This document shows positions 5,986-53,569 of a stretch of DNA of 64,000 bases, piece by piece. The position numbers and the translations under genes are program-made. Numbering within the stretch: position 1 is the first letter of the stretch; the number at the start of each line of letters is the position of its first letter. This DNA comes from Longimicrobiales bacterium (GTDB lineage: Bacteria > Gemmatimonadota > Gemmatimonadetes > Longimicrobiales > Gaopeijiaceae): the NCBI GenBank assembly GCA_965238005.1, contig OZ250165.1, positions 4,736,001 through 4,800,000 of the forward strand, written 5' to 3'. The notes beneath the pieces were generated by a model, which worked only from the letters and a program-made list of their open reading frames with translations, did no database searches and was not told the origin of the DNA.

Positions 5986-6013
5986 GTTAGGCAGAGAGCT
6001 CAAGGCGGGGGGT

Positions 6014-6763: not shown

Positions 6764-6832
6764 GTACCTCCTACTCGGGCTCGCAACGCGCGGGAGCCCC
6801 GTGATGTCTTGAGAACCTACGGACCAGGTCTC

Positions 6833-7483: not shown

Positions 7484-7884
7484 CGCGATGGTTTCGGTGA
7501 TCGCCGGTCCTCGAGGGGATCTGCCTCAACCTCAACGGGTGCGGCCTGGGGAGGCAGATGGCTACGGCTAATCTCGCTGAGCATCCCGCAACCGGCAACG
7601 CACCCGTCTCAAGACACATCTCGAGCCCGTACCGATATGAGAGTGACATCTCATTGCGCCGGTCGTATATAGCGATACGACTACCGACGATCAGGTTTTA
7701 CACCGTCTTGTTGGGGCGGGTGCAGTGTAACGGGAATCGTGCGGCCACCCTGGGGGGGCTGGTTTCGAGCCGCGACGACCGTTCCTCCATCCGCCCTTCG
7801 TCGTTTCCGATTGTTCCATCCCCCGGATAGCTTGGGTCTGACACCGGCCCGCCGAAGCACCTGCACCGATCTGAACCATCACGA

Positions 7885-9002
7885 ATGAAGCGGTACCCGA
7901 CATACGACCCGCCGGAATACCTGGAATGGACTCCGGATCTGGGATCGTCGATGCGTACGAGCGCGCGGTCCTGGAGGACGAGGAGCGGGCCGAGATCATC
8001 GCCGACCTGGACGGGGCACGGCTGGGCACCCTGTACCGCGACCTGTTGCTCACCCGCTTGCACGACATCGGACTCAAGCGATGGGTTCGGCAGGGTGTGC
8101 TTACGAAGGCGTGGCTGGGCACTGGCGAAGAGGCCGTCACGGTGGGCTCGGTCTCGGCGCTCGACTGTGAGCGAGACTTGGTCTGCCCCATGATCCGGAA
8201 TGCCGGTGCCTGCCATATGATGGGCATGCCCATGGCCGATCTATTCAGAGCCTATCTGGCTACCGCCGACTCGCCCAGTGGCGGGCGCGACCTCCATGCC
8301 GGCGATCCGTCGGTAGGGGTCATACAACCCATCAGCCACATGGGCACGAGCGTCGCGGTCATGGCGGGTGTGGCGCTGGCATTCAAGCTACGGGGCGAGG
8401 ATCGTGTCGCCATGACTTGGGTGGGCGATGGGGCGACCCGTACCGCCGCCTGCCACGAAGGGATGAACTTCGCCGCTGTCCAAGATCTCCCCGTGGTCTT
8501 CGTGATACAGAACAACCAAGTCGCCCTCGGCACACGACTCGACCAGCACGGGGCCGGAGACATGGCGCACTGGCCGGACATGTATGGCATCCCTTCCTGG
8601 GCCGCCGATGGAAAGAACGTCCTGGACGTACTCGCGACCACGACCCTAGCCGTTCGCCGATGTCGGGAAGGACGCGGGCCGGCTGTCGTGCTGGCGGAGA
8701 CTTTCCGTATGGGTGGACACGCGACCCACGACGAGGGCGAGGCCCGCGCCACGTTCCCGGCGGAGATGTTCGAGACCTGGGGACGCCGGGATCCCGTGGG
8801 GCTCTTCGAGGAGTTACTGAAGAAGAAAGGAATCTCTCAGGCGCAGTTGGCCTCCATCGAGGAAGAGGCGGCTGCCCTCGTGGATGGGGCCGCAGAGGCG
8901 GCTCTCACCTCGCGGGACGATCTCCCGAAGCCCGAGCAGGCGCTATACACAGGCTTCTCACAGGGGGGTCGCTTGGCTAACCTAGAGCGTCGGCCCGTAT
9001 GA
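7885..9002 (+). CDS. TPP-dependent 2-oxoacid dehydrogenase E1 alpha-like, probable frameshift near 7940
   Basis: GDGAT...EGMNFA...QNNQ TPP motif and RMGGHATHD; probable N-terminus MKRYPTYDPPEY is in another frame. Confidence 0.8.
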
Positions 9003-14646: not shown

Positions 14647-16636
14647 ATGAGCGAAGCGAGAAAGGGAAAGATCTGGCGGGTCGTCGCCGTCGACACGGGG
14701 GGTACCTTCACCGATATCCTCGTCCTCGACGCCGGCCGTCTCCGATCGCTCAAGGTACCCTCCACCCCCACCGATCCAGCCGACGCCGTCCTCGAGGGAC
14801 TCAGGACGCTGTTGGGCACGGGCGAAGGCGACTACCTGCTCCTTCACGGTTCCACCGTGGCCACGGAACGCCCTTCTGGAGCGAAAGGGCGCTCGGGTCA
14901 AGCTCGTCACCAACGCCGGCTTCGAGGATGTCATAGAGATTGGACGACAGAACCGGCCTCAGCTGTACGCCCTGGTCGGCCATCGCCCCAGTCCTCTGGT
15001 CCATCGAGACGACCGCGTCGGCATCCGCGGCAGAGTCGGACCGGAGGGCCAGGTGGTCGAGCCCCTCGACCAGGACGAGTTGGACGGTCTGGCCGAGCGG
15101 CTCGCTGGTGCTGAGTCCGTTGCAGTGGTCCTTCTCCACTCGTACGCGAACCCTGCGCATGAGGAGAGTGTCGCCGAAGCTCTGGCGGAGGTCTCTGTTC
15201 CTCTGTCGGTATCCGCAAGGCTGTTGCCCGAGTACCGGGAATACGAGCGAACATCCACGACAGTGGTGAACGCGTACGTGGCACCCCGCGTGTCCGCCTA
15301 CCTGGGCCGGCTGGATCGGGAGACCGGAGCGGAGCGGGTGAGGATCATGGGCTCCAACGGAGGATCGCTGCCGGTGAGCCGTGCGACCCGAGAGCCGATC
15401 CACACCGTACTGTCCGGCCCCGCGGGGGGAGTGGTGGGGGCGCTGGCGTGGGGACGCCTCGCCGGATTCGATCAGATTGTCTCATTCGACATGGGCGGCA
15501 CGTCCACCGACGTGTCTCTTTGCCCCGGTGGGCTCCTACACACACGGGAGTCCGAGATCGGGGGCCAGCCCGTGGCTGTCCCCGTCATCGATATCCACAC
15601 GGTGGGAGCAGGAGGAGGCTCCCTCGCTCGTGTCGACCCGGGCGGTGCGCTACGGGTGGGCCCCCAGTCCGCCGGTGCCGACCCCGGTCCCATCTGCTAA
15701 GGGAAGGGAGGGGACGCCGTCACGGTCACCGACGCCCACGTCTGGCTCGGTCGCCTTCCCGCCGATGCCTTTCTGGGTGGTGAAGGTACGCTCGACCGGA
15801 ACGGAATCGAGCCCACGCTTGCCAGCCTTGCCGAGAGCCTGGACGCGAGCCTCGAGGACACTGCCGAGGGGATTCTGGCTGTGGCCGACTCGGCCATGGA
15901 GCGAGCCCTCCGTGTTATCTCCGTGGAGCGCGGGTACGACCCAGCCGACTTCGCGCTCGTTGCGTTCGGAGGTGCCGGCGGACTCCACGCTGCGGGCCTC
16001 GCCCAAAAGCTGGGTGCCGACCGCGCTATCGTCCCACCCACGCCGGGCCTCCTTTCGGCCTACGGCATGCTGGCGGCCGACGTGACCCGCGAGACGTCAC
16101 GGACGGTGCTGATCTCCACCGAGACGCCCTCTGGAGAGAGACGCATAAAGGAGGTGTATCTGGAGCTCGAGAGGCACACGCTCGAGGCGATCCGACAGGA
16201 GGACGTGGAGGACGCGACAATCGAGCTCCACCGGTGGGTCGACGCTCGCTACGCCGGGCAGAGCTTCGAGCTCCAGGTGCCGGGCACGGACTGGGTGGCT
16301 GCCTTCCACGCTCTTCACCAGGAGAGGTACGGCTACCGGCGGGAGGGCACTCCGGTGGAGGCCGTTACCCTTCGGGTGGTCGCCTCTGCACCCGGTCCCG
16401 AACTGGAGCTCCAGCGCCTTCCTCCCACCACGGGGCCCGCCACCCTCAGCCCCACTCAGGTGCACGTAGATGGGCGCTGGGTGGAGGCTGGCCGTGTCTG
16501 GCGGAGCAAGATTTCTCCCGGACACGAACTGGAAGGGCCGGCGGTGGTTTCGGAGTACAGCTCCACCACATGGGTTCCGGAAGGGTGGCGGCTGACGGTG
16601 GACGACTGGGGGAACCTGCACCTCACGACAAGGTAG
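14647..16636 (+). pseudogene. Hydantoinase/5-oxoprolinase A subunit, disrupted
   Basis: DTGGTFTD, SGPAGG, DMGGTSTD and GAGGGS motifs; extra G near 14866 and in-frame TAA at 15698-15700 (PGPIC*G, where Tyr is expected). Confidence 0.85.
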
Positions 16637-16750: not shown

Positions 16751-19090
16751 ATGAGCCTCACCGACACCGAAACAGCCCCCAAGCTCGTCGACGACGACGA
16801 GCGGGGGGTAAGAGATGGTCCCAAAGTCGACGGACCGCCCTACGGCTGGGCGGTCATCGTCGCTCTGGGGGTGGGCCTCATTTATGCGATCACCCTGGCT
16901 CCCACCACAGCCTTCTGGGACACGAGCGAATATATAGCCACCGGGCATATCCTGGGGATTCCCCATGCGCCTGGGAACCCGCTCTTCGTGGTCCTGGCAC
17001 GCACGTGGGACGTCCTCCTGGCCCCCCTCGGTCTGACGGTGGCCACCCGCATCAATCTCTTCTCCGCGCTAATGGGGAGCCTGGCCCACGGCCTCTGGTT
17101 CCTGGCCGTATACCACGTCCTCGGGTTCTTCTCCAACGATCGACGCTTCCGGTTGGTCGGCGCCGTGACCGCGGCTCTCGTGAGCGCGACAGCCTTCACC
17201 GTCTGGAATCAGTCCAACGTGAACGAGAAGGTCTACACGGTCTCGCTCTTCACCATCGCTCTCTTGACCTGGCTCGTGTTCCACTGGCGAGAGAACCTGG
17301 GCAAGGGCAGGGACGACAACCTGCTGGTGCTCATGGCTTTCATCCTGGCGTTGTCGGTGGGGAACCACCTGATGGCGTTCCTGGCCGCCCCTGCTCTGGC
17401 TGTGTTCATCCTGCTGATCTCGCCTAAGACCCTTCTCAACTGGCGACTCTTCGCTGTTGGCGCCCTGGCGGTGTTCCTCGGCCTCTCCATTCACCTCTTC
17501 CTGCCGCTCCGGGCCGGTCTGGCCCCCATCATCAACGAAGGCGACCCGACCTGTTCGAGCATCCAGAGCGCCCTGACAAGCATCGTCACGTGGGGGCAAG
17601 CGGGGTGCATGGAGCTGTCATCGGCCCTCTCCAGGCAGCAGTATGACAAGGCACCTCTCTTCCCACGCCCGGCACCCCTGTGGTCTCAGTACGCCAACTA
17701 CCTCCAGTACTTCGACTGGCAATGGGCCAGGGGCGTGGCCGGACCGGAGACGGTCTTCCCACTCCTGAGGCTCCCGTTCACCGCTCTCTTCGCAGCCCTT
17801 GGGGCCTATGGCGCCAGCCAGCACCTCCGCCGTGACTCGGCCACCGGGCTCTACACCTTGGTCCTGTTCGTCACGCTCTCGCTGGGCCTGGTCTTCTACC
17901 TGAACTTCAAATACGGGTACTCCCTCGCGTCGCCCGCCCCGGGGACCGACATCCACGAGGTGCGTGAGCGGGATTACTTCTTCATCGTCGGCTTCTCGGT
18001 CTGGGGGCTCTGGGCCGGACTCGGAATCGCAGCGCTCTGGCAGCGGGTTGCCGAGCGGACGGGCGGCTCCTGGCTGCGGGCGGCCCCAGTACTGTCGCTG
18101 GCCCTCATACCGCTTCTTCTCAACTGGTCCTGGGCCAGCCGCAGGGGCGACTACTCGGCCAGAGACTGGGGGTACAACCTCCTCATGAGCGTGGAGCCGT
18201 ATGCGGTTCTCTTCACCAACGGGGACAACGACACATTCCCCCTCTGGTACCTGCAGGAAGCGGAGGGCATCCGACGGGACGTGATCGTCATCGTCACGTC
18301 CTATCTCAACACCGACTGGTATACCAAGCAGATCCGCGACCTGACCCGCCCCTGTCCCGCCAACGTGGACCCCGAGCAGGATCCGACGACGATCGTCTGC
18401 CAGCGTCCCTACCAAGCCTCATCGACGGCGGCGATGTATACCCACGATCCCGGCGAGGCCGAGGCTTTGGGAAAGATCGGGATCCTGATGGACGAGCCGG
18501 TGACCACACCGCGGAAGTCGATCCTTGCCCTGGACGACACCGTCATCGAGCAGGTGGTCAACCCCGCGGGGTATGTCAAAATGGAGGAGACCCGCGAGTT
18601 CCGCTTCGGGCCCGTGGTCGCCACGCTGGACGGAGGTACGGTGGTCGCCCCCTGGCAGCAATTCGCCCTGGCGCTGATCCAGAACAGCATCGACGACCGG
18701 CCCATCTATTTCGCCTCCAGCGGTAACGCCCCGTGGTCCCTGGGCTTGTCCCCCTATCTGGTCCGGCAGGGCGTGGCTTTTCGGCTCAACCCAGGCCCTC
18801 CGGATCTGAGCCCGAGGAACGTTCCCATGCAGGCCGCGGGCCTGTGGCCTGCCACGGGCCCGTGGCTCGACGAGGAGCGGACTCGCACGCTGGTCGACAG
18901 CGTGTTCGTGCACCGGGGGGGGATCCCCGACGAGTGGGCATACTGGCCGGACCGATCCACCGCCGGCATCCCGAAGTACTACGCCTGGGCCTACGCGGCT
19001 CTCGTCCAGAGTGCGATCCGGAGCGACGACGAAAGCTCGGCAGCTCGCTACGAAGATCGTCGGATCGCCTGGGAGGCGTTGGCGCGGTAA
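16751..19090 (+). CDS. DUF2723/TMEM260-like membrane glycosyltransferase
   Basis: FWDTSEY, HAPGNPLF, RERDYFF and GDNDTFPLWY motifs. Confidence 0.85.
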   Translation: MSLTDTETAPKLVDDDERGVRDGPKVDGPPYGWAVIVALGVGLIYAITLAPTTAFWDTSEYIATGHILGIPHAPGNPLFVVLARTWDVLLAPLGLTVATRINLFSALMGSLAHGLWFLAVYHVLGFFSNDRRFRLVGAVTAALVSATAFTVWNQSNVNEKVYTVSLFTIALLTWLVFHWRENLGKGRDDNLLVLMAFILALSVGNHLMAFLAAPALAVFILLISPKTLLNWRLFAVGALAVFLGLSIHLFLPLRAGLAPIINEGDPTCSSIQSALTSIVTWGQAGCMELSSALSRQQYDKAPLFPRPAPLWSQYANYLQYFDWQWARGVAGPETVFPLLRLPFTALFAALGAYGASQHLRRDSATGLYTLVLFVTLSLGLVFYLNFKYGYSLASPAPGTDIHEVRERDYFFIVGFSVWGLWAGLGIAALWQRVAERTGGSWLRAAPVLSLALIPLLLNWSWASRRGDYSARDWGYNLLMSVEPYAVLFTNGDNDTFPLWYLQEAEGIRRDVIVIVTSYLNTDWYTKQIRDLTRPCPANVDPEQDPTTIVCQRPYQASSTAAMYTHDPGEAEALGKIGILMDEPVTTPRKSILALDDTVIEQVVNPAGYVKMEETREFRFGPVVATLDGGTVVAPWQQFALALIQNSIDDRPIYFASSGNAPWSLGLSPYLVRQGVAFRLNPGPPDLSPRNVPMQAAGLWPATGPWLDEERTRTLVDSVFVHRGGIPDEWAYWPDRSTAGIPKYYAWAYAALVQSAIRSDDESSAARYEDRRIAWEALAR

Positions 19091-19209
19091 TCCCGCTGCG
19101 TGCGCGGTTCCCCCCGCGCGATCCGTCGGCCCTGCCACGGGGATGGCGGTAGCGCGACCTCGACAGCTATCCTCCTCAGGATTTCAATCCCACTGACAGG
19201 AGGAACCAG

Positions 19210-19647
19210 GTGAGCAGCGTCCCACAGAATTTCGAGAATCACGCCAGGTTCGTGCCCATGTACCACCTCGGGTCCTTTGGGCTCATCGCCGTATACGCCC
19301 TTTGGTCGCTGTATGTGATGGTGACCGCGTTCTCCCTCGCGTCGCTCATGTCCCTGCTCTTCGCCATCGGCGTGATCATCACCTTCTTCTTCGCCCGAGT
19401 CTTCCCGCTTGGAGTGCAGGATCGGGTCATTCGCCTCGAGGAGCGGTTACGCCTCGAGCGCCTCCTGCCGCCGGAGCGGCGCGACGCGATCTACAATGTG
19501 GACACCGAACTGCTCATCGGCCTCCGGTTCGCCTCCGACGGCGAGGTCGCCGACCTTTTCGACGCCATCGTCACCGAGGGCATCACCGACCGGGACGAGG
19601 TGAAGAAGCGGGTGACGAGCTGGCGGGCCGATCACCAACGGATCTGA
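19210..19647 (+). CDS. Conserved membrane protein (DUF6526-like)
   Basis: QNFENH, QDRVIRLEERLR, LRFASD and WRADHQRI; RBS AGGAGG. Confidence 0.75.
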   Translation: MSSVPQNFENHARFVPMYHLGSFGLIAVYALWSLYVMVTAFSLASLMSLLFAIGVIITFFFARVFPLGVQDRVIRLEERLRLERLLPPERRDAIYNVDTELLIGLRFASDGEVADLFDAIVTEGITDRDEVKKRVTSWRADHQRI

Positions 19648-19726
19648 CGCATCGGGTGGAGCACGAATCACCGTCGGGCGGGACCACGGCCTCCGATCCG
19701 TCTCCAAGCCATGGCTCGAGGCGGAG

Positions 19727-20134
19727 ATCATCCTACGGATCGTGCAGACCGTGGACCGCTGGTACCTGGGGGTACAGAACCTGGCCCGCTCCGTAGGGAT
19801 CCTGGGTTAGGGGCGGGAGTCGATTCAGGATTACGAGGCCGAGGGTCTCCGGTACACCGAGTTCCCGGACCTCAGCGACGAGGGCTGGCCGGGGTTCCGC
19901 ATGGTGATTCCCCCTGAAGCCACCTTGAGCCACACGACATCCGGTGTCTTCTACAGGGGCGTCCACCATCGCAGTCACCTCGTGCGGGAAGAGCCGGTGG
20001 TCAGGTACAAGGCGGCCCTGGTGGATGCCGGCCTTCGGTATGAGTCCGGGGACGACCCCATGGAGGACTTCCTCCGGATGGGTGACCTCGGCGGCGACGT
20101 CAGGATCCGCATCGCGCGAACACGGCGGGGGTGA
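19727..20134 (+). pseudogene. Possible degraded hypothetical gene
   Basis: Protein-like frame interrupted by a TAG near 19808; function unknown. Confidence 0.3.
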
Positions 20135-20241
20135 ACCGCGATCTCCATCGGGCAGTATCGGGACCACTCGAACGTCGAGGCCGTCATCCGTGAAACCGCG
20201 AGGAGGATGAGATCGGCGGAAACGTAGGGTATTCGCCAGGG

Positions 20242-21654
20242 TCAGTGGACCCATAGCTTCCCTACTCCGCTTCTCCGGATGCGCGTATGAGGCGCGCCGG
20301 CCCGGTCCACACGCAGGTCCACGATCCAATCGAACGATTCGGGAATCGTGTCCAGGATCTCGCCCCGGCAGAAGAGGAGGATCTTCGGAACCTGGGGCAG
20401 CATGTTCCGAAGAAGCCCGACGGCCCGGACCTTGGCCTCAGGCTCGAGGCGGTCGAAGGTATCACCGAGGAGCACCTCCTCGAACTGAATTCCCTGCTCA
20501 GCGGCGAGATCGATGAGCGCGAGCCGGAGCGCGAGCAAGTACGCCGCCACTTCCTCGTCGGACTGCAGCCGTCTCGCCCCCTCGTCCCGGACGACCGTAG
20601 GCTCTCCGTCTCCGGTGAGGCCCACTCCCAGAACGCCGCCGCTGGTCAAGTGATTGAGGTAGCGGCCCGTCCGGCCCGCAAGCATGTCCCGGGCGTCCGA
20701 GAGCAGCTCGGCTCGGAGGGCCTCCAGAGCCCGGCGACGCCGATCGACGTCTTCGCTGGCCACCCCGCGGTCCTCCAACCGCGTCGATCTCCGTCGATCC
20801 CTCGAGGTTCCAGCGGCCCGTACCGCGGCGAGCGTGTCCTCGGCTTCCGCCAACTCCGCGAGCCGCGCACGGATACGCTCCATCTCCTCCGTGCACTCCT
20901 CGATCGCCGCCTGAAGCCGGATCGCCTTCCCCTCCAGGTCCTGAAGATGAGAAGGCTTGAAGTCCAGCTGCTCTCGACGCCGCTTCCACCAGCTGCCGTC
21001 CTGAACGACCGACTCCCACTCTTCACGCAGCACGGTCAAAACGGACTCGAACCGTTCGGCGAGCAGGCGATCGCACGTGGGACACTCGCTCTCAGGGGCC
21101 CCAGCCTCCAGCTGCTGGAGCCGCACCTTCAGCTCACGGGCGCGATCCCGATAGGCCAGGAGGTGCGTCTCCGCGTCCTGCCTCTCGCGCAGCCAGTCCA
21201 TGTTGGCGACCTCCATGTCGCCACTCACCTCCGCTGCGTCGGCCCGCATCTCCCGGAGCTCACGCTCTTTTGTTCGCACGGCCTCCGGAAGCCGACGGAG
21301 CTCCTGGACCCGGGCACGGAGGTTCTCCACCCCCGAGTCCATGGAGATGAGGCCCGAAGTCGCCGAACTCTCTCTCTCCAGATCCGAAACTTCCCTGTCC
21401 ACCCCGTCCAGTCCGAGCCACTGCGCCAGCACTCGCACGGCGCACCGCCACGCCTGTGCGGGCTCCGTCAGTCCGTGTCCGGCCACCAACGTCGCCAACC
21501 GCTCGTCGCCCTTCGCTAATGGACCGGCGAATCGCTCGAGCGCCTCGCTGCGGAGCGGTCCGTCGCCACCGACGAGCGCGGCAAGGCCGGGGCCGAGCCG
21601 GAAGCCCAGCCGGTCCGCGTCCCACGACGATGTGCCGAGATTGAGGCTGCTCAA
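20242..21654 (-). CDS. SbcC/Rad50-like coiled-coil protein with zinc hook, ATPase motifs degenerate
   Basis: Coiled coil around CPTC; C-terminal head-like region with SDEE, LLGDTFDRLE and LFCR; no Walker A. Confidence 0.75.
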   Translation of the reverse strand: MSSLNLGTSSWDADRLGFRLGPGLAALVGGDGPLRSEALERFAGPLAKGDERLATLVAGHGLTEPAQAWRCAVRVLAQWLGLDGVDREVSDLERESSATSGLISMDSGVENLRARVQELRRLPEAVRTKERELREMRADAAEVSGDMEVANMDWLRERQDAETHLLAYRDRARELKVRLQQLEAGAPESECPTCDRLLAERFESVLTVLREEWESVVQDGSWWKRRREQLDFKPSHLQDLEGKAIRLQAAIEECTEEMERIRARLAELAEAEDTLAAVRAAGTSRDRRRSTRLEDRGVASEDVDRRRRALEALRAELLSDARDMLAGRTGRYLNHLTSGGVLGVGLTGDGEPTVVRDEGARRLQSDEEVAAYLLALRLALIDLAAEQGIQFEEVLLGDTFDRLEPEAKVRAVGLLRNMLPQVPKILLFCRGEILDTIPESFDWIVDLRVDRAGAPHTRIRRSGVGKLWVH

Positions 21655-21666
21655 CGCGCTTTCCTG

Positions 21667-22743
21667 CTACAATTGCGTCGCTGTGAGACAATCCTCCACC
21701 AGCCGTACCAGATCCTCGAGGCTCCCCCCATCCTCCGTGAGGCGCTCCGCCAGCCTGGACGCCAAGCGCACCGAGGGCCGCTCCTCGGCGGATTCCCCCG
21801 CCGTTCGGTCATCGAGCTGCACCTCCAGATGCAGAGCTCTGCGTCGGTACTCGGGAAAGAGCCCTTCCAGCAGGTCCAAGCGGTCCGGGGGAAGCCCCTC
21901 AATGCGAATACGCACGATCTTCTCTTCGATTCCACCCGGGACCTCGTTCAGTACTTCCCGGACACGTTCGCGGAGCCGGTTCGGGCGATCCGCCTCATAC
22001 GGGATCGAGGCCAAGGAGACGACGGGACGACCGTGGATGGCGTGGAAGCGAACACGCCCCGACTCCAGCTCGCACGTCAGGAAGCCCTTCTCCTCAGCCG
22101 CCTCCTCCCACGGCGTAGGCCCCACCCGCTCGAGGGATCCGGCATAGTGCACAGGCCCTCCAACCCTCCGGCGGTGGTGCTCGTAGCCGAGAGCCACGTA
22201 GTCCCACTTCGAGGGGTCCAATGCGAGCATGGCATTGTCCCCTCCGTCCGTCGATCCGTAGCCCACTAGCACGTTCCAGCGGGCATCGGGGTTGGGAGCC
22301 ACCGGTGGAGGCGGTCCCTGCAGCGTGGCCCGATGGGGAACGAGCGTCACGTTCAACCCCAGCTGAGAGTAATACACCGAGCGCGTCGTTCCGGTCACGG
22401 CCTCCACGGCGGCCATGGTGTCGAACGTCGCCAACGGACCCGGATCGGCCACGGGAGCCGGTGTATCGCGCGCCCCCGCCGCCAACAGCACCGGCGTGTC
22501 CGGGAGAGCTTCCCGGAGGGCCTGGAGCCCCTGTGCGAGGGCTACCAGGGCGGAGTGAGGTGGCTCCGGCCGATCGAACACGTCACCCGCCACTACCACG
22601 GCCGCCGGGCCCAGTCCGATCACCTTCTCGATGGCCTGGTGGAAAGCGCGGGTAACGTCCGCCTCTCGGACGTTACGGCCCTGCTCCACATGGGCGTACG
22701 CCCGGTACCCCAGGTGGAGGTCAGAGAAGTGGGCGATGATCAC
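21667..22743 (-). CDS. SbcD/Mre11-like metallophosphoesterase, motifs III-V degenerate
   Basis: HFSDLHLG, AGDVFD, YAGSLER and EEKG present; GARD and LGYEH replace GNHD and LGHxH. Confidence 0.8.
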   Translation of the reverse strand: MIIAHFSDLHLGYRAYAHVEQGRNVREADVTRAFHQAIEKVIGLGPAAVVVAGDVFDRPEPPHSALVALAQGLQALREALPDTPVLLAAGARDTPAPVADPGPLATFDTMAAVEAVTGTTRSVYYSQLGLNVTLVPHRATLQGPPPPVAPNPDARWNVLVGYGSTDGGDNAMLALDPSKWDYVALGYEHHRRRVGGPVHYAGSLERVGPTPWEEAAEEKGFLTCELESGRVRFHAIHGRPVVSLASIPYEADRPNRLRERVREVLNEVPGGIEEKIVRIRIEGLPPDRLDLLEGLFPEYRRRALHLEVQLDDRTAGESAEERPSVRLASRLAERLTEDGGSLEDLVRLVEDCLTATQL

Positions 22744-23387
22744 GAGGGCTTCATCTCGGACTCGGGCTTCGCAAGAGGCTCCAGGTCCACGTTGGATGCC
22801 GACGGCACGTCAGTGTCCGACTCAACCGCCCCTTCCAGAATCCACCCCTGCAAGAGGGCGGTGCCGGACAGGACGATGAGGAGGAAAAGCAAGAGAGACG
22901 GGGCACCCAGGCGCGACAGTCCGCTCAAGCCGGTCGCCAGAACCCCGAGCGCGGCACCCAGAGCGGCGACTGCCCCGGCCCTCGGCGGCCCATCGGTAAT
23001 CCACACCGTAGAGATAGCCGCCAGTAGGCGGCCACAAGCGTAGAGTGGCAACCCTGCCAGCAACGCCAGGCCGAGAGCCTGGGTCGTAGCCCCCGCGCCG
23101 AATCCCTCCCCGAACGTCCAAGCGACTGTAAAGACCGACGCGGCCAGGAAGGCGATGAGCACCGACAGCCATCGCCTCCGGAGAGATTCTACTACCCCCG
23201 GCCACTCCGCCACAGGGGGACCCGCCAGCCCGACGCCCAAGGCCACCAGCTCGACCGCGACGATCAGCGTCAGCGACCGGAGCATGCCCTCGCCCGAGTA
23301 CAGCAGCAGTGCCACGGCGACGGCTGCGGCCGTGGCCGCGGCCGCCCCCACAACGAAAGAGGGCACCCACGCCAGACGGGCCCTCAA
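22740..23387 (-). CDS. Multi-pass membrane protein
   Basis: About 6 TM segments; stop overlaps the SbcD-like start (GTGA). Confidence 0.7.
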   Translation of the reverse strand: MRARLAWVPSFVVGAAAATAAAVAVALLLYSGEGMLRSLTLIVAVELVALGVGLAGPPVAEWPGVVESLRRRWLSVLIAFLAASVFTVAWTFGEGFGAGATTQALGLALLAGLPLYACGRLLAAISTVWITDGPPRAGAVAALGAALGVLATGLSGLSRLGAPSLLLFLLIVLSGTALLQGWILEGAVESDTDVPSASNVDLEPLAKPESEMKPS

Positions 23388-23448
23388 CGATTCGCCGTTT
23401 CCCGCAGATCGACCTCACCCGGGGCCGTCCGGTGGTCAGGCGGCACCT

Positions 23449-23477
23449 TTGATTTCCCCCAGGGGCCGGGATAGCTT
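23449..23477 (+). promoter_or_regulatory. Candidate promoter TTGATT-17-TAGCTT, probably leaderless
   Basis: -10 box ends 6 nt before ATG 23484; no SD sequence. Confidence 0.5.
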
Positions 23478-23483
23478 TTCCGC

Positions 23484-24494
23484 ATGGTCAAAGGCCTTCA
23501 GAGGGTCCCGTTGCTCGGGATTGTAATGGTCGGGTTGGGTTGCGACAACGTGGAGTGGGGAGGGGTCGACATGAGGCTGAGATCTCCCTCGGAGCCTACG
23601 ATCATGGAGGCTCCTGCTCCGCCCGCCGACGCGACTGCAACTCCCGTGACTCCCAGACCCTCGGAGCCCGTCCTGTACCTGGGCCGGCGGGTGGGATCCG
23701 AGGCCTGGCTGGTGCCTGTAGCGGAAATGCACGCCGATGGGCTACACGCGCTCCCAGGAGATGGCGGGGGCCAGGAGAGTCGGGCATTTGCCGAACAACA
23801 CTTCGCGGCGGGCTCGACGTTCACCCTCTTCACGGAAGGGGTGCGGGTGGGGACTCTCACGGCAGCCGGGTATGGCGCGGATGCGAGGTATTGTGGAGCG
23901 AGACCCCGGGTCCGTGGTCCCATCGAGCTCGTCCCGGACGCGGCCGCCAGCAGCGCCTTCCTCGCTCTTCCGAGCGATATAGGGGCATCGTTCGCGTACG
24001 AGGATCATGAGACAATCGTGCAGACTCGTGACCTGAGAGTCACGTCGCTCAACATGATGAGGGCACTCTTTCCCACGCTGAGAGCCACTTGGCCCGAATC
24101 CGTCCTCGCTATCCGGCGTGACATACAGATGTTCCGGAACGGCTCCGAAGGGGCCCCCACGGTCGTCGCGACCTTCGTGTACGGCGACTCCCTACAGGTG
24201 GGACCCGCGCCCCCCGACGCCTACTCGGTCTTTCTCATCGCCTCCGACCCCGACGGCAGTGGATACCAGACCACGTACGTCGATTACCGGGTATGGAGCC
24301 AGCACGGCAAGGGTGCTGCGCGCTACTTCGGCCGCATGGACGTGGATGGCGACGGCACACCCGAGCTCATCCTGGAGGTGCTGGGTGAGAGCTCCGTCTG
24401 GATCGCCACCCTGAAGCGAGAGGACGTCGGCTGGAGCGAATCGTACCGGGACTCTTGCGGCCTGCCGGCGCCCGTGGCCACAAGGGCCCCGTGA
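23484..24494 (+). CDS. Putative lipoprotein
   Basis: Signal peptide with LGC lipobox; DVDGDGTPEL motif. Confidence 0.75.
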   Translation: MVKGLQRVPLLGIVMVGLGCDNVEWGGVDMRLRSPSEPTIMEAPAPPADATATPVTPRPSEPVLYLGRRVGSEAWLVPVAEMHADGLHALPGDGGGQESRAFAEQHFAAGSTFTLFTEGVRVGTLTAAGYGADARYCGARPRVRGPIELVPDAAASSAFLALPSDIGASFAYEDHETIVQTRDLRVTSLNMMRALFPTLRATWPESVLAIRRDIQMFRNGSEGAPTVVATFVYGDSLQVGPAPPDAYSVFLIASDPDGSGYQTTYVDYRVWSQHGKGAARYFGRMDVDGDGTPELILEVLGESSVWIATLKREDVGWSESYRDSCGLPAPVATRAP

Positions 24495-24512
24495 CGCGAG
24501 CGTCCGGCAGCA

Positions 24513-24627
24513 GTGGCCCGTAGCCAATGATCGATTGGTGTTGATCTCGCTTCGCTCGATCGTCTCGCGGTCGACTCGGCCCTCACGACGAGCACGAAGG
24601 TCGCTCGACTCGAGCAGCGCTGCATCC
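24513..24627 (-). repeat. Degenerate, truncated MITE relative
   Basis: About 85 bp matching the internal module of type A, plus a B-like terminal repeat remnant. Confidence 0.7.
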
Positions 24628-24630
24628 ACC

Positions 24631-25527
24631 GTGACTTCGTTGCGCCGGCTCGGCACGTGTGTGCTGGTCGCCTCGCAGCTGAGTTGCACAGCCGATCAAG
24701 GCACCACTGGAGGCGATTCACCCGAGGGCCCCCCCCCAGGCTCCGCTGCGAGCGACTATCCCATCCTGGTCATCGATGACTCGGGGGCGCAGCATCGTTT
24801 CGACGCCCCTCCGGAAAGGATCGTCTCGCTCGTGCCGTCGGCAACCGAGACGCTCCTGGCTCTGGGGGTCCGGGCGAGCCTGGTGGGTCGAACGGACTAC
24901 GACCATTTGCCGGAGCTCGCCGAGCTGCCGTCGGTGGGGGGTGGACTCCAGCCCAACCTCGAGGTCCTGGTCTCACTCGATCCCGACCTGGTCGTCCGGT
25001 TCGCGGGCGAGTCTGACCAGGCCACGGCAGAGCGCCTGAGCGACCTCGGTATCCCACACTTCGCCATCCAGCCTGACGGCATCGCCGACGTTCAGTCGAT
25101 CATCGGACGTCTTGGAGCGATCACCGGCGCCGCTTCAGCCGCCGATTCGATCTTGGCGGGGATCCAGGAGGCCCTGGACGACGTGGCGGCGCGCGTCGAC
25201 GGCCTGCCCCGTCGCAAGGTAGTTTACCTCATGGGTGGCGAGCCCCCGTGGGTGACCGGGCCCGGGACGTACATACACGAGCTCATAGTGGCCGGCGGGG
25301 CGGAGAACGTCTTCGACGACCTTGAAGGGTTATATGTCCCCATAAGTCTGGAGGAGCTGATCACCCGTGAGGTAGACTTGATCCTCGTCTCCGAGGGGAG
25401 CGTGCCGCCGCAGGTCTCCGATGTCGAGCACGTGCCGCTGCCCAGCTCGGTGGAGGTGCCGGGGCCCGGACTGGGGGAGGCCGCCAGGACCATCGCTCGT
25501 CTGATCCACCCGGAGGCTTTCCGGTGA
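24631..25527 (+). CDS. Cobalamin/iron-chelate ABC substrate-binding lipoprotein (BtuF-like)
   Basis: PERIVSLVPSATE and PNLEVLVSLDPDLV; LSC lipobox; start inferred. Confidence 0.82.
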   Translation: MTSLRRLGTCVLVASQLSCTADQGTTGGDSPEGPPPGSAASDYPILVIDDSGAQHRFDAPPERIVSLVPSATETLLALGVRASLVGRTDYDHLPELAELPSVGGGLQPNLEVLVSLDPDLVVRFAGESDQATAERLSDLGIPHFAIQPDGIADVQSIIGRLGAITGAASAADSILAGIQEALDDVAARVDGLPRRKVVYLMGGEPPWVTGPGTYIHELIVAGGAENVFDDLEGLYVPISLEELITREVDLILVSEGSVPPQVSDVEHVPLPSSVEVPGPGLGEAARTIARLIHPEAFR

Positions 25528-26522
25528 GGCCGCTCGCTTGGGCTGGAGTGCTCCTCCTGGGTGTAATGGGCGCGTTCGCTGTGAGCATCTGGCTCGGCTC
25601 GGTCGCGCTCACACCGTCCGAGGTCGTCACCGCGTTGACGGGTGGAGGAGACCCCAATGTCCAACGAATCGTGGTGGAGCTACGGGCGCCGCGGGCGGCG
25701 CTGGCCATCCTGGTGGGCGGAGGACTGGCCCTGGCCGGAGCGGTTTTTCAAGCACTGCTCCGGAACCCCCTGGCGGAGCCGTACATTCTGGGGATCTCCG
25801 GCGGAGCCGCCACCGGAGCCGTCTTGGCCCTGTCTCTCGGCCTGGTAGCGAGTGGCTCCTGGGCTCTCCCGGCCGCGTCTTTCACGGGAGCCCTCCTGGC
25901 CATCGTTCTCGTGATGAGGGTCGCGGCTGCCGCCGATGACAGAGTCGACGTGCGAGTGCTCCTTCTGGCCGGGGTCGTGGTGGGCGCGTTCTTCAGTGCC
26001 TGTATCTCGTTCGTCTTGTCCGTCTCCGACGCCCGTACGGTGCGGAGCGCCGTCCTGTGGATGATGGGCAGCCTCGCCGGCGCAGATTGGCCCACCGTGG
26101 CAACGGTGACGCTGTATACCGTGCCGGCCGCTGTTCTGCTGGCGGGTCTCGCACGCCCGCTCAACCTCATGGCAATCGGCGAGGATACGGCAGGCTACCT
26201 CGGGACGAACGTGGAGCGCGTCAAGAAGACGGCCTACGTAGTGGCTTCGCTGCTGACCGCGGCGGGGGTGGCAGCCACAGGGGTCATCGGGTTCGTGGGG
26301 CTCATCGTGCCCCACGGCGTACGGCTGGTCGTCGGGTCCGACTACCGCATGCTGCTTCCGCTCTCGTTCCTTGCCGGAGCCGTGTTTCTTATCCTGGCCG
26401 ACGTGGTGGCCCGGACGATCCTGTCACCCACCGAGGTACCCATCGGCGTCATCACCGCGTTCGTGGGAGTGCCTCTATTCCTCATTCTGCTCCGCCGCAG
26501 CTTGGGAAGCGGAGGCCGCTAG
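25524..26522 (+). CDS. FecCD/BtuC-type ABC permease
   Basis: RNPLAEPYILGISGGA, GVIGFVGLIVPH and EVPIGVITA motifs. Confidence 0.92.
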   Translation: MRPLAWAGVLLLGVMGAFAVSIWLGSVALTPSEVVTALTGGGDPNVQRIVVELRAPRAALAILVGGGLALAGAVFQALLRNPLAEPYILGISGGAATGAVLALSLGLVASGSWALPAASFTGALLAIVLVMRVAAAADDRVDVRVLLLAGVVVGAFFSACISFVLSVSDARTVRSAVLWMMGSLAGADWPTVATVTLYTVPAAVLLAGLARPLNLMAIGEDTAGYLGTNVERVKKTAYVVASLLTAAGVAATGVIGFVGLIVPHGVRLVVGSDYRMLLPLSFLAGAVFLILADVVARTILSPTEVPIGVITAFVGVPLFLILLRRSLGSGGR

Positions 26523-27329
26523 GTGACCGACGAATCCAACGCTCTGGAAGCAGTCGAGCTCACGGTCCGTTATCCTGGGATGGACCATCCCGCCCTGGAC
26601 GACGTGTCCATGGTCGTCCCACGGGGATCCTTCTACGCAGTCCTTGGTCCCAACGGATCGGGAAAGTCGACGCTGCTCAGAGCCCTACTCGGAATGGTCC
26701 CCTACGTGACCGGAGAGACCCGGGTCTCAGGACGGAGCGTCTCGGAGTGGAACCGGCGGGCGCTGGCCAGAGAGGTGGGGGTCGTGCCTCAAGCGGAGTC
26801 GGTGGCATTCCCACTCACCGTCCGGGATCTCGTAGGCATGGGTCGCTACCCATACCTTGGACCGCTCCAGCCTGAGACTCCGGCCGATCGGGAGGCCATC
26901 CAGCGGGCCATGGAACGCTGCGACGTATGGGAGCTCGGACATCGGTTCATCTCGACCCTGTCGGGGGGCGAGCTTCAGCGGGCACGAGTCGCCAGGGCCC
27001 TCGCCCAGGAGCCCGAGGCGCTGGTCCTGGATGAGCCCACCACCAGTCTCGACATACGCCACGAGATGGAGATCCTGGAGCTCCTCAGATCCTCCGCAAA
27101 CGGGGGGATGACGATCTTCCTCATCACCCACCACCTCGACCTGGCCGCCCGCTTCGCAGACCGTGTATTGCTTCTGGACCGTGGCCGCGTCGCCGCTGAG
27201 GGAGAGCCTCGCGAGGTCCTTCGGGAGAGCACACTCCAGCAGGTGTACCAGTGGCCCGTGACCGTGGATGACGATCTGGCCACCGGGGTCTTGCGAGTAA
27301 CACCCCTGTCCGGGCGCTACAGGTCGTAG
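26523..27329 (+). CDS. BtuD/FecE-type ABC ATPase
   Basis: GPNGSGKST, LSGGE and LDEPT motifs. Confidence 0.92.
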   Translation: MTDESNALEAVELTVRYPGMDHPALDDVSMVVPRGSFYAVLGPNGSGKSTLLRALLGMVPYVTGETRVSGRSVSEWNRRALAREVGVVPQAESVAFPLTVRDLVGMGRYPYLGPLQPETPADREAIQRAMERCDVWELGHRFISTLSGGELQRARVARALAQEPEALVLDEPTTSLDIRHEMEILELLRSSANGGMTIFLITHHLDLAARFADRVLLLDRGRVAAEGEPREVLRESTLQQVYQWPVTVDDDLATGVLRVTPLSGRYRS

Positions 27330-27606
27330 TGTGGTGTCCCAGAAGTGTCTCGGCCATTGATCTCGCTGCGCTCGATCGTCTCGCGGTCGACTCGGCGCTC
27401 ACGACGAGCATGAAGGTCGCTCGGCTCGAGCACCGACGCATCCGGCCCTGCGGCGTTCCTCCTCCTCGGACCACGGCCTTCGGCCGCGGTGCCCGCGTTG
27501 CTATTCCTCGTCGTCGCGCCTGACCCACGCATCCGGCGCGGGTACCCCGGATCCGGCGCCTCGGCACTCTCGGTGGCTCGCGAACTTCTTCTGGGACACC
27601 ACACTA
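27327..27606 (-). mobile_element. MITE-like element type A, copy 2 (inverted)
   Basis: Same TIRs and interior as 5708-5985; TA flanks. Confidence 0.9.
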
Positions 27607-27638
27607 GGAGCCCCTCGCCATGACTCGGACCGGGCTTT

Positions 27639-28538
27639 TTAGGACTCGGCTTCCTCGAACAGGGTCCTATAGCTTTCGAAGCGACCGGTGTCGATTTCTC
27701 CTGCAGCGACCGCTTCGCGCACGGAACAGTCCGGCTCGTGCAAGTGGCTACAGCCTCGGAAACGGCAGCCGGATGCAAGAGAGCGGAGCTCCGGAAAGCA
27801 CTCATCCAGGTCCGCCTGTCGTACCCCCCAAACCCCTATGTCGCTGAAGCCGGGAGTATCCGCGACCAGCCCACCACACCGGAGCTGGATCAGCCGTGAA
27901 GTCACGGTGGTGTGACGACCCGTGCCCCGCTTGCGGCTGAGCTCCCCGGTCCTGAGTTCCTGCTCCGGCTCGAGGGCGTTGACCAGACTCGACTTCCCAA
28001 CCCCGGACGGGCCCGCAAGAGCCGCGATACCTTGGCAGACCTGCCTGGCGAAGCTGTCCATGCCCTGACCGGTGAGGGCGCTCACCTTCAGCACGTCGTA
28101 ACCCAAGGGCTGGTAGACCCGTTCCAACTCCTCTGCCACCTCGCCGGCGCCCTCGAGGTCGGCCTTGTTCAGGACTACGACGGGTGTGACCCCACCGTAC
28201 TCGCCCACCACCAGCAGCCGATCGATCAGGTCACGACGGGGCTTCGGCCTGCTGGCGGCGAAGACTGCGAGGAGTCGATCGGCGTTGGACACCAGGACCT
28301 TGGTGGAGCGCCCGCCGAAGCGGGTGCGAGTAATGGTCGTCTCGCGCTCGAACACCTCCTCGATGACGTGGGTCTCGCCACCCACTTCCGTCACGCGGAC
28401 TCGATCCCCGATGACCACCTGATCGCCCGTGCGCTCCTCGAGCTTGAGACGACCCCTCAGTGATGCCTCGACAACGGTCCCCGACTCGAGCGCCACGGTG
28501 TACACTCCACCGCGGACAAGGTGAACCATGCCTTTCAT
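27639..28538 (-). CDS. rsgA: Ribosome small subunit-dependent GTPase
   Basis: NKAD, GPSGVGKSS, GRHTT, DTPG and CRFRGCSHLHEPDC motifs. Confidence 0.95.
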   Translation of the reverse strand: MKGMVHLVRGGVYTVALESGTVVEASLRGRLKLEERTGDQVVIGDRVRVTEVGGETHVIEEVFERETTITRTRFGGRSTKVLVSNADRLLAVFAASRPKPRRDLIDRLLVVGEYGGVTPVVVLNKADLEGAGEVAEELERVYQPLGYDVLKVSALTGQGMDSFARQVCQGIAALAGPSGVGKSSLVNALEPEQELRTGELSRKRGTGRHTTVTSRLIQLRCGGLVADTPGFSDIGVWGVRQADLDECFPELRSLASGCRFRGCSHLHEPDCSVREAVAAGEIDTGRFESYRTLFEEAES

Positions 28539-28564
28539 GTGCTCAGTGGGATAGGCAGCACACG

Positions 28565-28618
28565 AAAAAAAACCCCGCCCCCCACCGAGACCGTCCGATC
28601 CCGGGGAAGGCGGGGCTT
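28565..28618 (-). terminator. Intrinsic terminator after sigma-70 gene
   Basis: CCCCGCC...GGCGGGG stem followed by a T-run on the minus strand. Confidence 0.7.
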
Positions 28619-28631
28619 CCCTGCCGGTGGG

Positions 28632-29531
28632 TCACGCCGCGAACGACTCCAGCGCGTCTCCCTTACCACCCTCGCGAAGCCTCCGCAGGGCCCGGTCACG
28701 CAGCTGGCGAATCCGCTCGCGCGTCACTCCCAGCAGGTTGCCGATCTCCTCGAGCGTGTGCTCGCGCTCGCCCTCCAGACCGAAGTAGAGTCGAAGCACC
28801 TTGGCGTCCCGCGCCTCGAGCGTGCTCAATGCGTCGCCGACGGTCTGGGTCAAAAGCCGGCTCTCGACCTCCTGCTCTGGCTCGGCCGCCTCTTCAGTGA
28901 TGAACCGCTCGACAAGCTGAGAATCCTCGCTGTCGCCGATGGGGGCATCGAGCCGAATCTCTGCCGCGTTGAGAGTCTGGAGAGACTCGATCAGCTCCGG
29001 CGTGAGGTCCGTCGCCGAACTCAACTCCTCGGACGTGGGCTCACGATTCAGCTCCTGCTTGAGGCGCTCCTTCTCACGAAAGATACGCGCCAGGTCGGAC
29101 GCCCGGTTGAGAGGCACACGCACCGCACGCCCGTGATTGGCCAGAGAGGCCAGGATCGCCTGACGAATCCACCAAACCGCGTAGCTGATGAACTTAACGC
29201 CCTGCTCGGGATCGAACTTCCGGGCGGCCGTGACCAATCCGACATTTCCCTCTTGGATCAGGTCCGTGAGGGCCACACCCCGGTTCTGGTACTTCTTGGC
29301 CACGCTGATGACGAATCGAAGATTCGCCCGGGCGAGCTCCTGAATCGCGTTCTGGTCACCATTCTGAGCGAGGGCACCGAGCTCCTTCTCCTTGTCGGGA
29401 GTGATGAGCTCATGGCGACTGACATCCCTCAGATACTGATCGAGGGCGGTCTTTTCTTCGATGCTCGCGTCGAAGCCGGCCAGGGGGTTGCGCCGCCCCT
29501 TCCGCTCTCTGCGCGTAGTAACCGTAGCCAT
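28632..29531 (-). CDS. RpoD/SigA-family sigma-70 factor (short, no region 1.1)
   Basis: ANLRFVISVAKKY, DLIQEGN, KFISYAVWWIRQ and TRERIRQ motifs. Confidence 0.93.
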   Translation of the reverse strand: MATVTTRRERKGRRNPLAGFDASIEEKTALDQYLRDVSRHELITPDKEKELGALAQNGDQNAIQELARANLRFVISVAKKYQNRGVALTDLIQEGNVGLVTAARKFDPEQGVKFISYAVWWIRQAILASLANHGRAVRVPLNRASDLARIFREKERLKQELNREPTSEELSSATDLTPELIESLQTLNAAEIRLDAPIGDSEDSQLVERFITEEAAEPEQEVESRLLTQTVGDALSTLEARDAKVLRLYFGLEGEREHTLEEIGNLLGVTRERIRQLRDRALRRLREGGKGDALESFAA

Positions 29532-52158: not shown

Positions 52159-52228
52159 CACGTCCCTTTCTCTCTGGACCCGCTCTCTTTGCCAATCTAC
52201 TGTCCAGAGAAACCGGGGGGCTGTCTCA

Positions 52229-52860: not shown

Positions 52861-52983
52861 AAGCGACGATCTAGCCTATCCGCCACGATGGAACGCTTGG
52901 TCCCGGATCACTCACCTGTTTGATCAATCGCCGAGACTGCTGTCCGCCCGCCCGCGCCCTCTTCTCCCTGTCAGGAGGATCCG

Positions 52984-53460: not shown

Positions 53461-53569
53461 TAGGGCCGTCCTCGTCGCTGCCGGTGAGAATCCTGGATAA
53501 CCCGAGCCTGGGCTATCCCTCCCGCGTTTCGGAGCCTGTCAACCCGGATGAGACACTTGGGGGAATCAA

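Follow-up and report, generated by a model that had tools for sequence, protein, structure and literature searches.

Can a pair of proteins built like SbcCD, in which the residues that define both active sites have been exchanged, still be doing something for the cell, and what could that be? The question is raised by three adjacent genes in a stretch of 64,000 nt from a Longimicrobiales bacterium (Gemmatimonadota; contig OZ250165.1, positions 4,736,001 to 4,800,000), hereafter the window, to the whole of which all coordinates refer. All three are on the minus strand and encode a membrane protein with six transmembrane (TM) segments, an Mre11/SbcD-like protein and a short Rad50/SbcC-like protein (Table 1). 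Mre11-Rad50/SbcCD is regarded as universal, and its defining chemistry is an ATP-driven clamp together with a two-metal nuclease. A preliminary description of the locus, made from the letters alone, had seen here an intact, apparently catalytically dead complex, which it took to be repurposed. On balance, we lean towards the pair being a functional paralogue of SbcCD, maintained by selection, that would have kept the architecture and remodelled the chemistry and that may bind or tether, without cutting, beside the membrane protein.

Two real folds outside the curated families

The SbcD-like protein is matched by the Pfam model Metallophos in its N-terminal part only (E-value 8.1e-5) and by the SbcD model TIGR00619 sbcd (2.7e-13) with 50.3 bits, under the cut-off of 77.65, and the equivalog models give it 17-48 bits for cut-offs of 450-750. 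Compared by sequence with Mre11 chains it reached 7e-10. Its AlphaFold model (predicted local distance difference test, pLDDT, 81.3) matches Mre11/SbcD structures over the full length, the best of them at 8.8e-18, and the top 50 PDB matches listed are all Mre11/SbcD. As modelled, the protein is a calcineurin-like phosphoesterase fold plus a capping domain.

For the SbcC-like protein the Pfam ABC/SMC models (AAA_23, SMC_N, SbcC_Walker_B) gave no match at E<=1, and as a single sequence it matched no PDB chain. The profile of its family (alignment A2) aligned to Rad50 chains with an E-value of 4.4e-5, covering both lobes, and the ESM Atlas groups it with clusters of the Rad50/SbcC type. Its structural model (pLDDT 80.5) matches Rad50 heads, SMC heads and LmuB, with a TM-score of 0.73, normalised to the target, against the Rad50 head 1f2u_D. 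According to the model, it is a bipartite ABC head whose lobes are joined by an antiparallel coiled coil. The CPTC motif (residues 191-194) is flanked there by helices 122-188 and 199-230, and both cysteines, C191 and C194, are found in all 81 sequences of the family that we have compared, so that the coiled coils and the hook are kept, as had been proposed. This CxxC is the predicted zinc hook at the apex of the coiled coil. Both folds are real, and yet both proteins fall outside the boundaries of the curated families.

Replacement of the active-site motifs

The motif strings given for both proteins in the preliminary description were all recovered on translation. We have followed each of them through a census of 79 SbcD-like and 81 SbcC-like sequences, window included. 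In the Mre11 of Pyrococcus furiosus one Mn is bound by Asp8, His10, Asp49 and His208 and the other by Asp49, Asn84, His173 and His206, with His85 assisting catalysis. We take D8, H10, D54 and H189 of the SbcD-like protein to be the ligands of one Mre11 metal site, and the motif III Asn and the first motif V His to be second-metal ligands in Mre11. On this mapping the family would presumably retain one metal site and drop two or three ligands of the other. Motifs I and II are kept. In motif III the Asn position is occupied by Pro (50), Ala (25) or Ser (4), the His position by Arg in 79/79 (R92) and the next one by Asp in 79/79 (D93), and an Asn-His pair is present in none of the 79. The first position of motif V reads Gly in 52, His in 17, Tyr in eight and Ser in two, followed by a second His (H189) in every sequence. 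At the motif IV position the window protein has Tyr162 in place of His, with His137 nearby in the sequence. A His at either 137 or 162 is found in 77/79 (H137 with Y162 in 25, Y137 with H162 in 40), and the swap tracks the clades in which the two proteins are split or fused.

The SbcC-like protein had been described as devoid of a Walker A motif. The canonical motif is indeed missing, but the place of the P-loop is taken by a degenerate remnant, GGDGPLRS (residues 29-36), which follows strand 23-29 and leads into helix 33-43 of the model and aligns to GENGSGKS of Rad50 and to GPNGAGKS of the canonical SbcC. Throughout the family this region reads GGxG, then Arg (54) or Pro (17), then Ala, Ser or Leu at the third Gly position (24, 22 and 19 of 81; Gly in 4/81), with R35 in 77/81 and Arg (51) or Ser (14) at the next, Ser/Thr position. 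In the clade of the window a single Arg is left in this region, which weighs against the idea that an Arg-rich P-loop might pair with the acidic signature as a substitute for ATP. A longer N-terminus is impossible, as the ORF begins at the first start codon past an in-frame stop. The signature has Ser in 74/81, then Glu (53) or Asp (28), Glu (77) and Asp (53) or Glu (26). The Walker B/D-loop region consists of a hydrophobic residue, Glu (48) or Gly (26), Glu (42), Asp (26) or Gln (13), Pro (58) or Thr (19), Phe, Asp (D401, 79/81), Arg, Leu and Asp (47) or Glu (26). Most relatives thus hold EEPFDRLD, a near-canonical Walker B/D-loop, and the LLGD-TFDRLE of the window is further off. The position of the His-switch is Arg in 69/81 and His in a single sequence.

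These family-wide replacements persist down to 36-40% identity (79-81 sequences). Since the census finds them across the family, they are fixed features of it and not random damage. A look at the relatives had been suggested together with the motif assignments, and in them G[P/A/S]RD is found in 79/79, the Walker A Arg in 77/81 and the His-switch Arg in 69/81.

Distribution and selection

A profile search of 1.84 billion representatives, of whose 1062 hits at E<=0.001 we examined 150, gave 121 representatives at E<=1e-30. Sequence searches gave 887 SbcD-like and 368 SbcC-like relatives, the best 120 of each reaching down to 48% and 40% identity, respectively. A relative of the pair is encoded at 243 genome loci, from a scan with one genome per species, and 80 of them were examined (numbered with the prefix L where a single one must be named). 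Lineage names belonging to Gemmatimonadota (Longimicrobiales, Gemmatimonadales and others) were attached to 78 of the 80; the other two carry a Planctomycetota label, on a 4-kb contig, and the name 'uncultured bacterium'.

Ratios of nonsynonymous to synonymous substitution rates (dN/dS) were calculated by the Nei-Gojobori method between the window and L002, L003, L004 and L006, at dS values of 0.7-0.94. Over whole genes the ratio was 0.07-0.12 (SbcD-like), 0.09-0.16 (SbcC-like) and 0.22-0.29 (membrane protein). A way to see where the constraint lies is to compare regions within each gene, a comparison that additionally takes in L007. The hook and the adjacent coiled coil (residues 189-240) have the lowest values of the SbcC-like protein (0.007-0.075), followed by the ascending coil (106-188; 0.06-0.07) and the C-lobe (0.08-0.21), and the N-lobe with the P-loop remnant is the part under the weakest constraint (0.20-0.32). 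Within the SbcD-like protein the phosphoesterase domain is the tightest part (0.04-0.08).

These values bear directly on whether the two genes are decaying sbcCD remnants that are still open by chance. The loss of catalytic motifs in both proteins would fit such a decay, as would the other broken genes of the window, but the pair shows dN/dS of 0.07-0.16, far from the values near 1 that had been named as the sign of decay, its substitutions are shared by 79-81 sequences, 121 representative clusters lie at E<1e-30 and the structure of the operon is conserved. Motif census and dN/dS together refute decay, to which we attach a vanishingly small probability, and the earlier view of an intact pair that is not decaying stands.

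A conserved three-gene cluster

In 78 of the 80 loci the SbcC-like part is immediately preceded by the SbcD-like part, and the other two end at a contig edge. Both parts form a single ORF of about 830-840 aa in 50/79 relatives, with the SbcC-like part coming straight after the SbcD-like part; they are separate in 29, the window included. Cultured Gemmatimonas carries the fused form. The fusion in 50/79 strongly indicates that both proteins work as a unit. Immediately before the pair, 71/80 loci have a gene homologous to that of the membrane protein, and of the nine loci that have none, seven leave no room for it before the contig ends. In 67/72 cases (71 loci plus the window) the membrane gene and the SbcD-like gene share 4 nt, where the stop of the first meets the start of the second, an arrangement that is typical of translational coupling. 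The cluster is therefore conserved among the relatives, where the preliminary description had proposed to look for it.

In the window itself, the listing of ORFs and the translation of the spacer agree with what had been reported about the pair, two unbroken ORFs 12 bp apart, and the overlap of the SbcD-like start by a gene with roughly six TM segments was likewise recovered (the GTGA overlap of Table 1 and six hydrophobic segments). The SbcD-like and SbcC-like ORFs share their reading frame, with one TAG and four codons between them (21655-21669), and the same arrangement is found in L001, L005 and L006. Read-through of the TAG in the window would yield a protein of ~833 aa resembling the fused relatives. 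Programmed read-through was considered and rejected, as the frame is shared in 8/29 split cases, about what chance would give. The TAG in frame between both genes may instead be the mark of a fission by nonsense mutation. A scan of 19600-23700 for promoters and terminators returned one promoter-like and one terminator-like site, neither of them usefully above the expectation from shuffled sequence.

One locus, L041, has a single ORF of 1040 aa (4771-7893) that covers the membrane, SbcD-like and SbcC-like proteins. At the junction the SbcD-like part has lost its first ~23 residues, and motif I with them, to other sequence, and the ORF is probably a frameshift artefact; we have not counted it as a triple fusion.

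Table 1. Positions of the three genes and of their junctions and motifs in the window.
Feature	Position	Strand	Remarks
6-TM membrane protein	22740-23387	-	215 aa; unbroken ORF
Mre11/SbcD-like protein	21667-22743	-	358 aa; unbroken ORF; phosphoesterase domain, capping domain and C-terminal helices
Short Rad50/SbcC-like protein	20242-21654	-	470 aa; unbroken ORF; reduced N-lobe, short antiparallel coiled coil with CPTC hook, C-lobe
GTGA overlap, membrane gene TGA stop/SbcD-like GTG start	22740-22743	-	
12-nt spacer between SbcD-like TAG stop and SbcC-like TTG start	21655-21666	-	holds AGGAAAG
SbcD-like motif I, DLH (D8, H10), kept	22714-22722	-	D in 77/79, H in 78/79 of the family
SbcD-like motif II, GDVFD (D54), kept	22573-22587	-	G53, D54, F56 and D57 each in 79/79
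SbcD-like motif III, AGARDTP instead of GNH(D/E)	22459-22479	-	AGARD opposite AGNHE in the alignment to solved Mre11
SbcD-like VPHR (His137)	22330-22341	-	position 137 in the family Y44/H35
SbcD-like motif IV position, LVGYGS (Tyr162)	22252-22269	-	position 162 in the family H51/Y27/T1
SbcD-like motif V, LGYEH, half kept	22177-22191	-	opposite LGHIH of Mre11; first His replaced by Tyr, second (His189) retained
SbcC-like degenerate P-loop region, GLAALVGGDGPLRSE	21544-21588	-	Walker A Lys replaced by Arg35, Gly by Leu34
SbcC-like hook module, residues 145-240	20935-21222	-	includes CPTC at 21073-21084; common to the canonical SbcC of the phylum
SbcC-like signature, QSDEE replacing xSGGE	20551-20565	-	SDEE opposite SGGE in the profile alignment to canonical SbcC
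SbcC-like Walker B/D-loop region, VLLGDTFDRLE	20443-20475	-	opposite canonical LILDEVFGSLD in the profile alignment
SbcC-like replaced His-switch, LFCRG (Arg430)	20362-20376	-	FCR opposite canonical ITH in the profile alignment

The membrane protein

The hydropathy scan found six hydrophobic segments in the 215-aa protein of the window, to which neither Pfam nor NCBIfam gave a match. It belongs nevertheless to a conserved family of its own (alignment A3), in which 35 of the 72 members (71 loci plus the window) are longer by ~220 residues. The A3 profile, long forms included, matched solved spermidine synthases at profile positions 236-385 (E 5e-12). Against NCBIfam the long forms reach 3.6e-6 with TIGR00417 and 1.4e-4 with NF037959 (11.6-20.7 bits for a cut-off of 40), all of them under the cut-offs. 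Judged by these profiles, the C-terminal domain of the long forms clearly looks spermidine-synthase-like. In the window protein, which lacks this domain, the six TM segments are followed only by an acidic tail that is not conserved, and the ESM Atlas places the protein among unnamed clusters, with weak leads to the major facilitator superfamily (MFS) and to spermidine synthases. In the long forms (L027-L078, for example L050, 7581-8855) the spermidine-synthase-like domain reads VGGGAS, at a place where spermidine synthases, as we assume, carry a motif of the GGGDG type.

To judge from the order of the genes and the overlap of start and stop, the membrane protein may be coupled physically to the SbcD/SbcC-like pair. 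Complex prediction of the membrane protein with the SbcD-like protein and with the SbcC-like lobes (residues 1-125 and 300-470) scored 0.00 in both cases, in runs that had no controls and that therefore speak neither for binding nor against it.

Relation to the canonical SbcC of the phylum

The lower-ranked hits of the profile search carry the canonical motifs GPNGAGKST, SGGE, LILDEVFGSLD and ITH and match all the Pfam ABC/SMC models. A search with one of these hits (P0324) retrieved proteins of ~813 aa named SMC family ATPase or exonuclease SbcC, and the NCBI organism names among its 120 listed matches were Longimicrobium, Longimicrobiaceae, Gemmatimonadetes, Gemmatimonadota and one 'soil metagenome'. 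The family of the SbcC-like protein was aligned by hhalign to 12 canonical SbcC of Gemmatimonadota with probability 100 and an E-value of 2.1e-47, residues 104-459 of the window corresponding to 316-798 of the canonical protein, in which long coiled-coil insertions appear.

Dissecting this alignment by region, the hook is the part best conserved between both kinds of protein. Over the hook module (145-240), 38-45 residues in 87-96 columns are identical to those of the 12 canonical SbcC (40-47% identity), and the motifs WLR(E/D)RQDAET and VQDG(S/K)WW(K/R) that flank the hook are common to the two consensuses. The C-lobe has 28-36 identical residues in 91-118 columns, about 30%, and the N-lobe gives short weak matches only. 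From these sequence comparisons we conclude that the phylum has, in this pair, a shortened and remodelled paralogue of its SbcCD. The idea of a repurposed complex is thereby met halfway: a paralogue fits it, as does a canonical SbcC in the phylum, but the separate canonical copy that was to be looked for in the genome was seen neither in the window nor at the 80 loci.

What could the complex do?

The reading that we favour can be put as a sequence of steps, each of them conditional. An SbcD-like dimer would be seated on the SbcC-like heads by means of its C-terminal helices, with the zinc hook linking a pair of short SbcC-like arms, as in SbcCD. To judge from the motifs, the canonical cycle of ATP binding and hydrolysis would have been given up (Arg for the Walker A Lys and for the Ser/Thr after it, an acidic signature, Arg in the His-switch), with the additional change of the Walker B DE to GD and the reduced N-lobe in the clade of the window, and so would the two-metal nuclease chemistry, as motif III has lost its Asn-His and motif V the first of its two His. 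The complex might then bind, tether or bridge its targets, of which DNA ends or structures are the most plausible if the binding of DNA is assumed from its ancestry. It would be made together with the membrane protein and probably work beside it.

Several observations weigh against this reading. A canonical SbcC was detected neither in the window nor at any of the 80 loci (no ORF with a canonical N-lobe by the A4 hidden Markov model), and the evidence for one is at the level of the phylum and the order, a scope that leaves the window's own genome aside. The loci L072 and L073 have room upstream but no membrane gene. The words non-hydrolysing and non-cutting are an inference from motifs, and the near-invariant D8, H10, D54 and H189 and the invariant Arg92 have the look of a retained active site, in the very domain where the SbcD-like dN/dS is lowest; a His is kept at 137 or 162 in nearly all sequences. 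The EEPFDRLD of most relatives points the same way, and some nucleotide-dependent behaviour may exist in them. Finally, LpxH is described as an active metallophosphoesterase that has Arg at the position of the motif III His (PMC3087551). The term "catalytically dead" of the preliminary description holds as far as the loss of motifs is concerned; that both sites are dead is a conjecture going beyond it.

The same observations can be turned into an alternative, namely that the pair has stayed an enzyme, though with altered chemistry. The SbcD-like protein would be a phosphoesterase, either a nuclease or a phosphodiesterase of another kind, that uses one metal or the help of the Arg and needs no ATP cycle, and the SbcC-like protein would serve just as a hook-dimerised arm. 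D8 (77/79), H10 (78/79) and D54, H189, R92 and D93 (79/79 each) could be its active site, the His that changes places between 137 and 162 from clade to clade (77/79) a compensated ligand, and the dN/dS of 0.04-0.08 and the precedent of LpxH (PMC3087551) would be natural under this explanation. However, the motif III Asn, which LpxH retains, is absent in 79/79 (Pro, Ala or Ser) and the first motif V His is left in only 17/79, the 137/162 swap follows the split and fused clades and may be one inherited change rather than repeated compensation, and the conserved residues could equally hold a structural metal or phosphate in a pseudo-enzyme. We regard this explanation as a serious one, although with a rather low probability. 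The strong conservation of the hook leads to a different proposal, in which the pair would regulate the canonical SbcCD or act as its decoy. By pairing with an active SbcC in mixed zinc-hook dimers, it would cap or tether the active complex or fix its place in the cell, which might be the membrane. The 38-45 identities in 87-96 columns with 12 canonical SbcC, the dN/dS of 0.007-0.075 that makes the hook the most constrained SbcC-like part and the canonical SbcC known in the same phylum and order are in line with it, but the window and the 80 loci show no canonical copy, the likeness of the hooks may be ancestral and kept for homodimerisation, and a coiled coil so much shorter than the canonical one would make a lopsided heterodimer. 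We consider such mixed dimers unlikely. Along these lines, the pair might be a dedicated partner of the active SbcCD, a silent half that anchors, caps or licenses the cutting half while the membrane protein holds one end; this, too, we think improbable. If true, it would be a bacterial pseudo-enzyme paralogue controlling a machine for the processing of DNA ends.

A last alternative is an anti-phage defence system built on an SMC/Rad50-like protein, in the manner of Lamassu or Wadjet, in which the membrane protein would be the effector. The SbcC-like protein has weak PADLOC matches, to LmuB (8.7e-9, 33 bits, residues 115-388) and to JetC (2.3e-6), and LmuB chains are among its fold matches. These PADLOC matches are mostly coiled coil, however, and there is none for the SbcD-like protein, the membrane protein or a fused relative, nor do genes like LmuA or LmuC adjoin the cluster. 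The surroundings speak in the same sense. On one side are a sigma factor, RsgA (67/81), an ABC importer and a divergent lipoprotein (70/81), and on the other a TMEM260-like transferase (68/81) and the hydantoinase, each of these flanking genes being kept in 61-70 of 81 (80 loci plus the window). Such a neighbourhood, conserved throughout the phylum, is the behaviour of the core genome and argues against a mobile defence island. The defence explanation is disfavoured, and we give it very little credit.

In our preferred reading, that of a selection-maintained paralogue with remodelled chemistry, Gemmatimonadota maintain a second, shortened version of Mre11-Rad50 under strong purifying selection, with the defining residues of both active sites swapped in a fixed pattern and the zinc hook and the Mre11 core preserved. 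If the complex is truly non-catalytic, it would be a natural separation of the architectural roles of Mre11-Rad50 (bridging by the hook, binding of ends) from the enzymatic ones. If it is still catalytic, it would provide an alternative solution for the active site within the Mre11 family.

Other features of the window

A gene for a protein of 336 aa without a meaningful family match (23484-24494, plus strand) is divergent from the operon and is kept there in 70/81. Beyond it, a direct repeat of 113 nt (24541-24653 and 27357-27469, plus strand; copies 83% identical) brackets an importer operon with a periplasmic-binding protein, FecCD and an ABC ATPase, and its first copy overlaps the predicted start of the binding-protein gene. 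Rfam gave no credible RNA family, and none for the repeat, either at the gathering threshold in 19000-29000 or at an E-value threshold in 24350-27650.

The hydantoinase/oxoprolinase A gene is found in three overlapping frames at 14647-16636 on the plus strand (14647-15114, 15053-15700 and 15881-16636). Of the 12 close relatives inspected, 11 (L001, L002 and L005 among them) have it as a single ORF of 662-935 aa that spans the three pieces, and L007 has it in fragments, so that the broken copy of the window is either a recent pseudogene or an indel error of the assembly. In L001, a relative 96% identical to the window, it is the membrane gene that is split at 8263-8912 (ORFs 8263-8727 and 8724-8912), and the copy of the window is whole. 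As the hydantoinase is whole in the relatives and the membrane gene is split in L001 instead, the breaks are specific to each assembly and may be indel errors. The preliminary description had contrasted the intact pair with decaying genes of the window; these breaks are real, but being specific to the assembly they leave the contrast weak.

Pieces of an ABC exporter at 3024-4664 on the minus strand (ABC_tran at 3024-3533, ABC_membrane at 3890-4183 and 4275-4664) look like one gene broken into several ORFs. Two transposase genes with an integrase core (rve) are located on the minus strand at 50918-51994 and 53570-54439, near an SSB gene (48901-49521) and a gene of the DinB family (52984-53460), and the surroundings (50918-54439) are possibly a patch rich in insertion sequences.

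Comparison with known systems

Full-text literature searches for Gemmatimonadetes, Gemmatimonadota or Gemmatimonas together with SbcC or SbcD, and for inactive SbcCD paralogues and Rad50-like proteins lacking Walker A, gave nothing on this family among the papers listed, and sbcC or sbcD occurs in none of the 15 papers listed for Gemmatimonadota or Gemmatimonas. Nor did these searches bring up a link of membrane-anchored spermidine-synthase-like proteins to an SbcCD-like pair. The closest comparison is SbcCD/Mre11-Rad50 itself. The window family shares with it the Mre11 fold with capping domain and C-terminal helices, the Rad50 ABC head, antiparallel coiled coil and CxxC hook, and the order of the genes, nuclease before ATPase. 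It differs by G[P/A/S]RD in place of GNH(D/E), a first motif V His that is mostly gone, a Walker A Lys changed to Arg, SGG to S(E/D)E and the His-switch to Arg, by scores below the curated cut-offs and by the 6-TM gene that overlaps its start from upstream. The canonical SbcC of the phylum itself, of ~813 instead of 470 aa, is longer by about 340 residues, which belong for the most part to the coiled coil and the N-lobe.

For the upstream gene, the models NF037959 (fused MFS/spermidine synthase) and PRK03612 have the same composition as the long forms, a 6-TM N-terminal domain and a spermidine-synthase-like C-terminal domain, but the window family scores under the NF037959 cut-offs and the window copy consists of the TM domain and the acidic tail. 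LmuB of Lamassu and JetC of Wadjet resemble the SbcC-like protein in their short Rad50/SMC-like architecture, with weak profile and fold matches, and the window cluster departs from them in lacking their partner genes, in its core-genome site and in its remodelled ATPase motifs. LpxH (UDP-2,3-diacylglucosamine hydrolase; PMC3087551) is comparable for the Arg that replaces the His of GNH(D/E), as R92 does here; it keeps the Asn and the other blocks and is not of the Mre11 type, and it is a precedent that a change of His to Arg need not kill activity.

Fusions of Mre11 and Rad50 have been described in Mimivirus (R555), some Firmicutes, Deferribacter and plasmids (PMC3175470), a paper in which the string 'Gemmatimon' does not occur. 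According to that paper, these have, as 50/79 of the relatives studied here, an N-terminal Mre11-like and a C-terminal Rad50-like part. They are described there with Walker A, Walker B and the D-loop and with a sporadic distribution, in contrast to the window family, which is distinguished from the fusions so described by its remodelled motifs, its phylum-wide synteny and its membrane partner.

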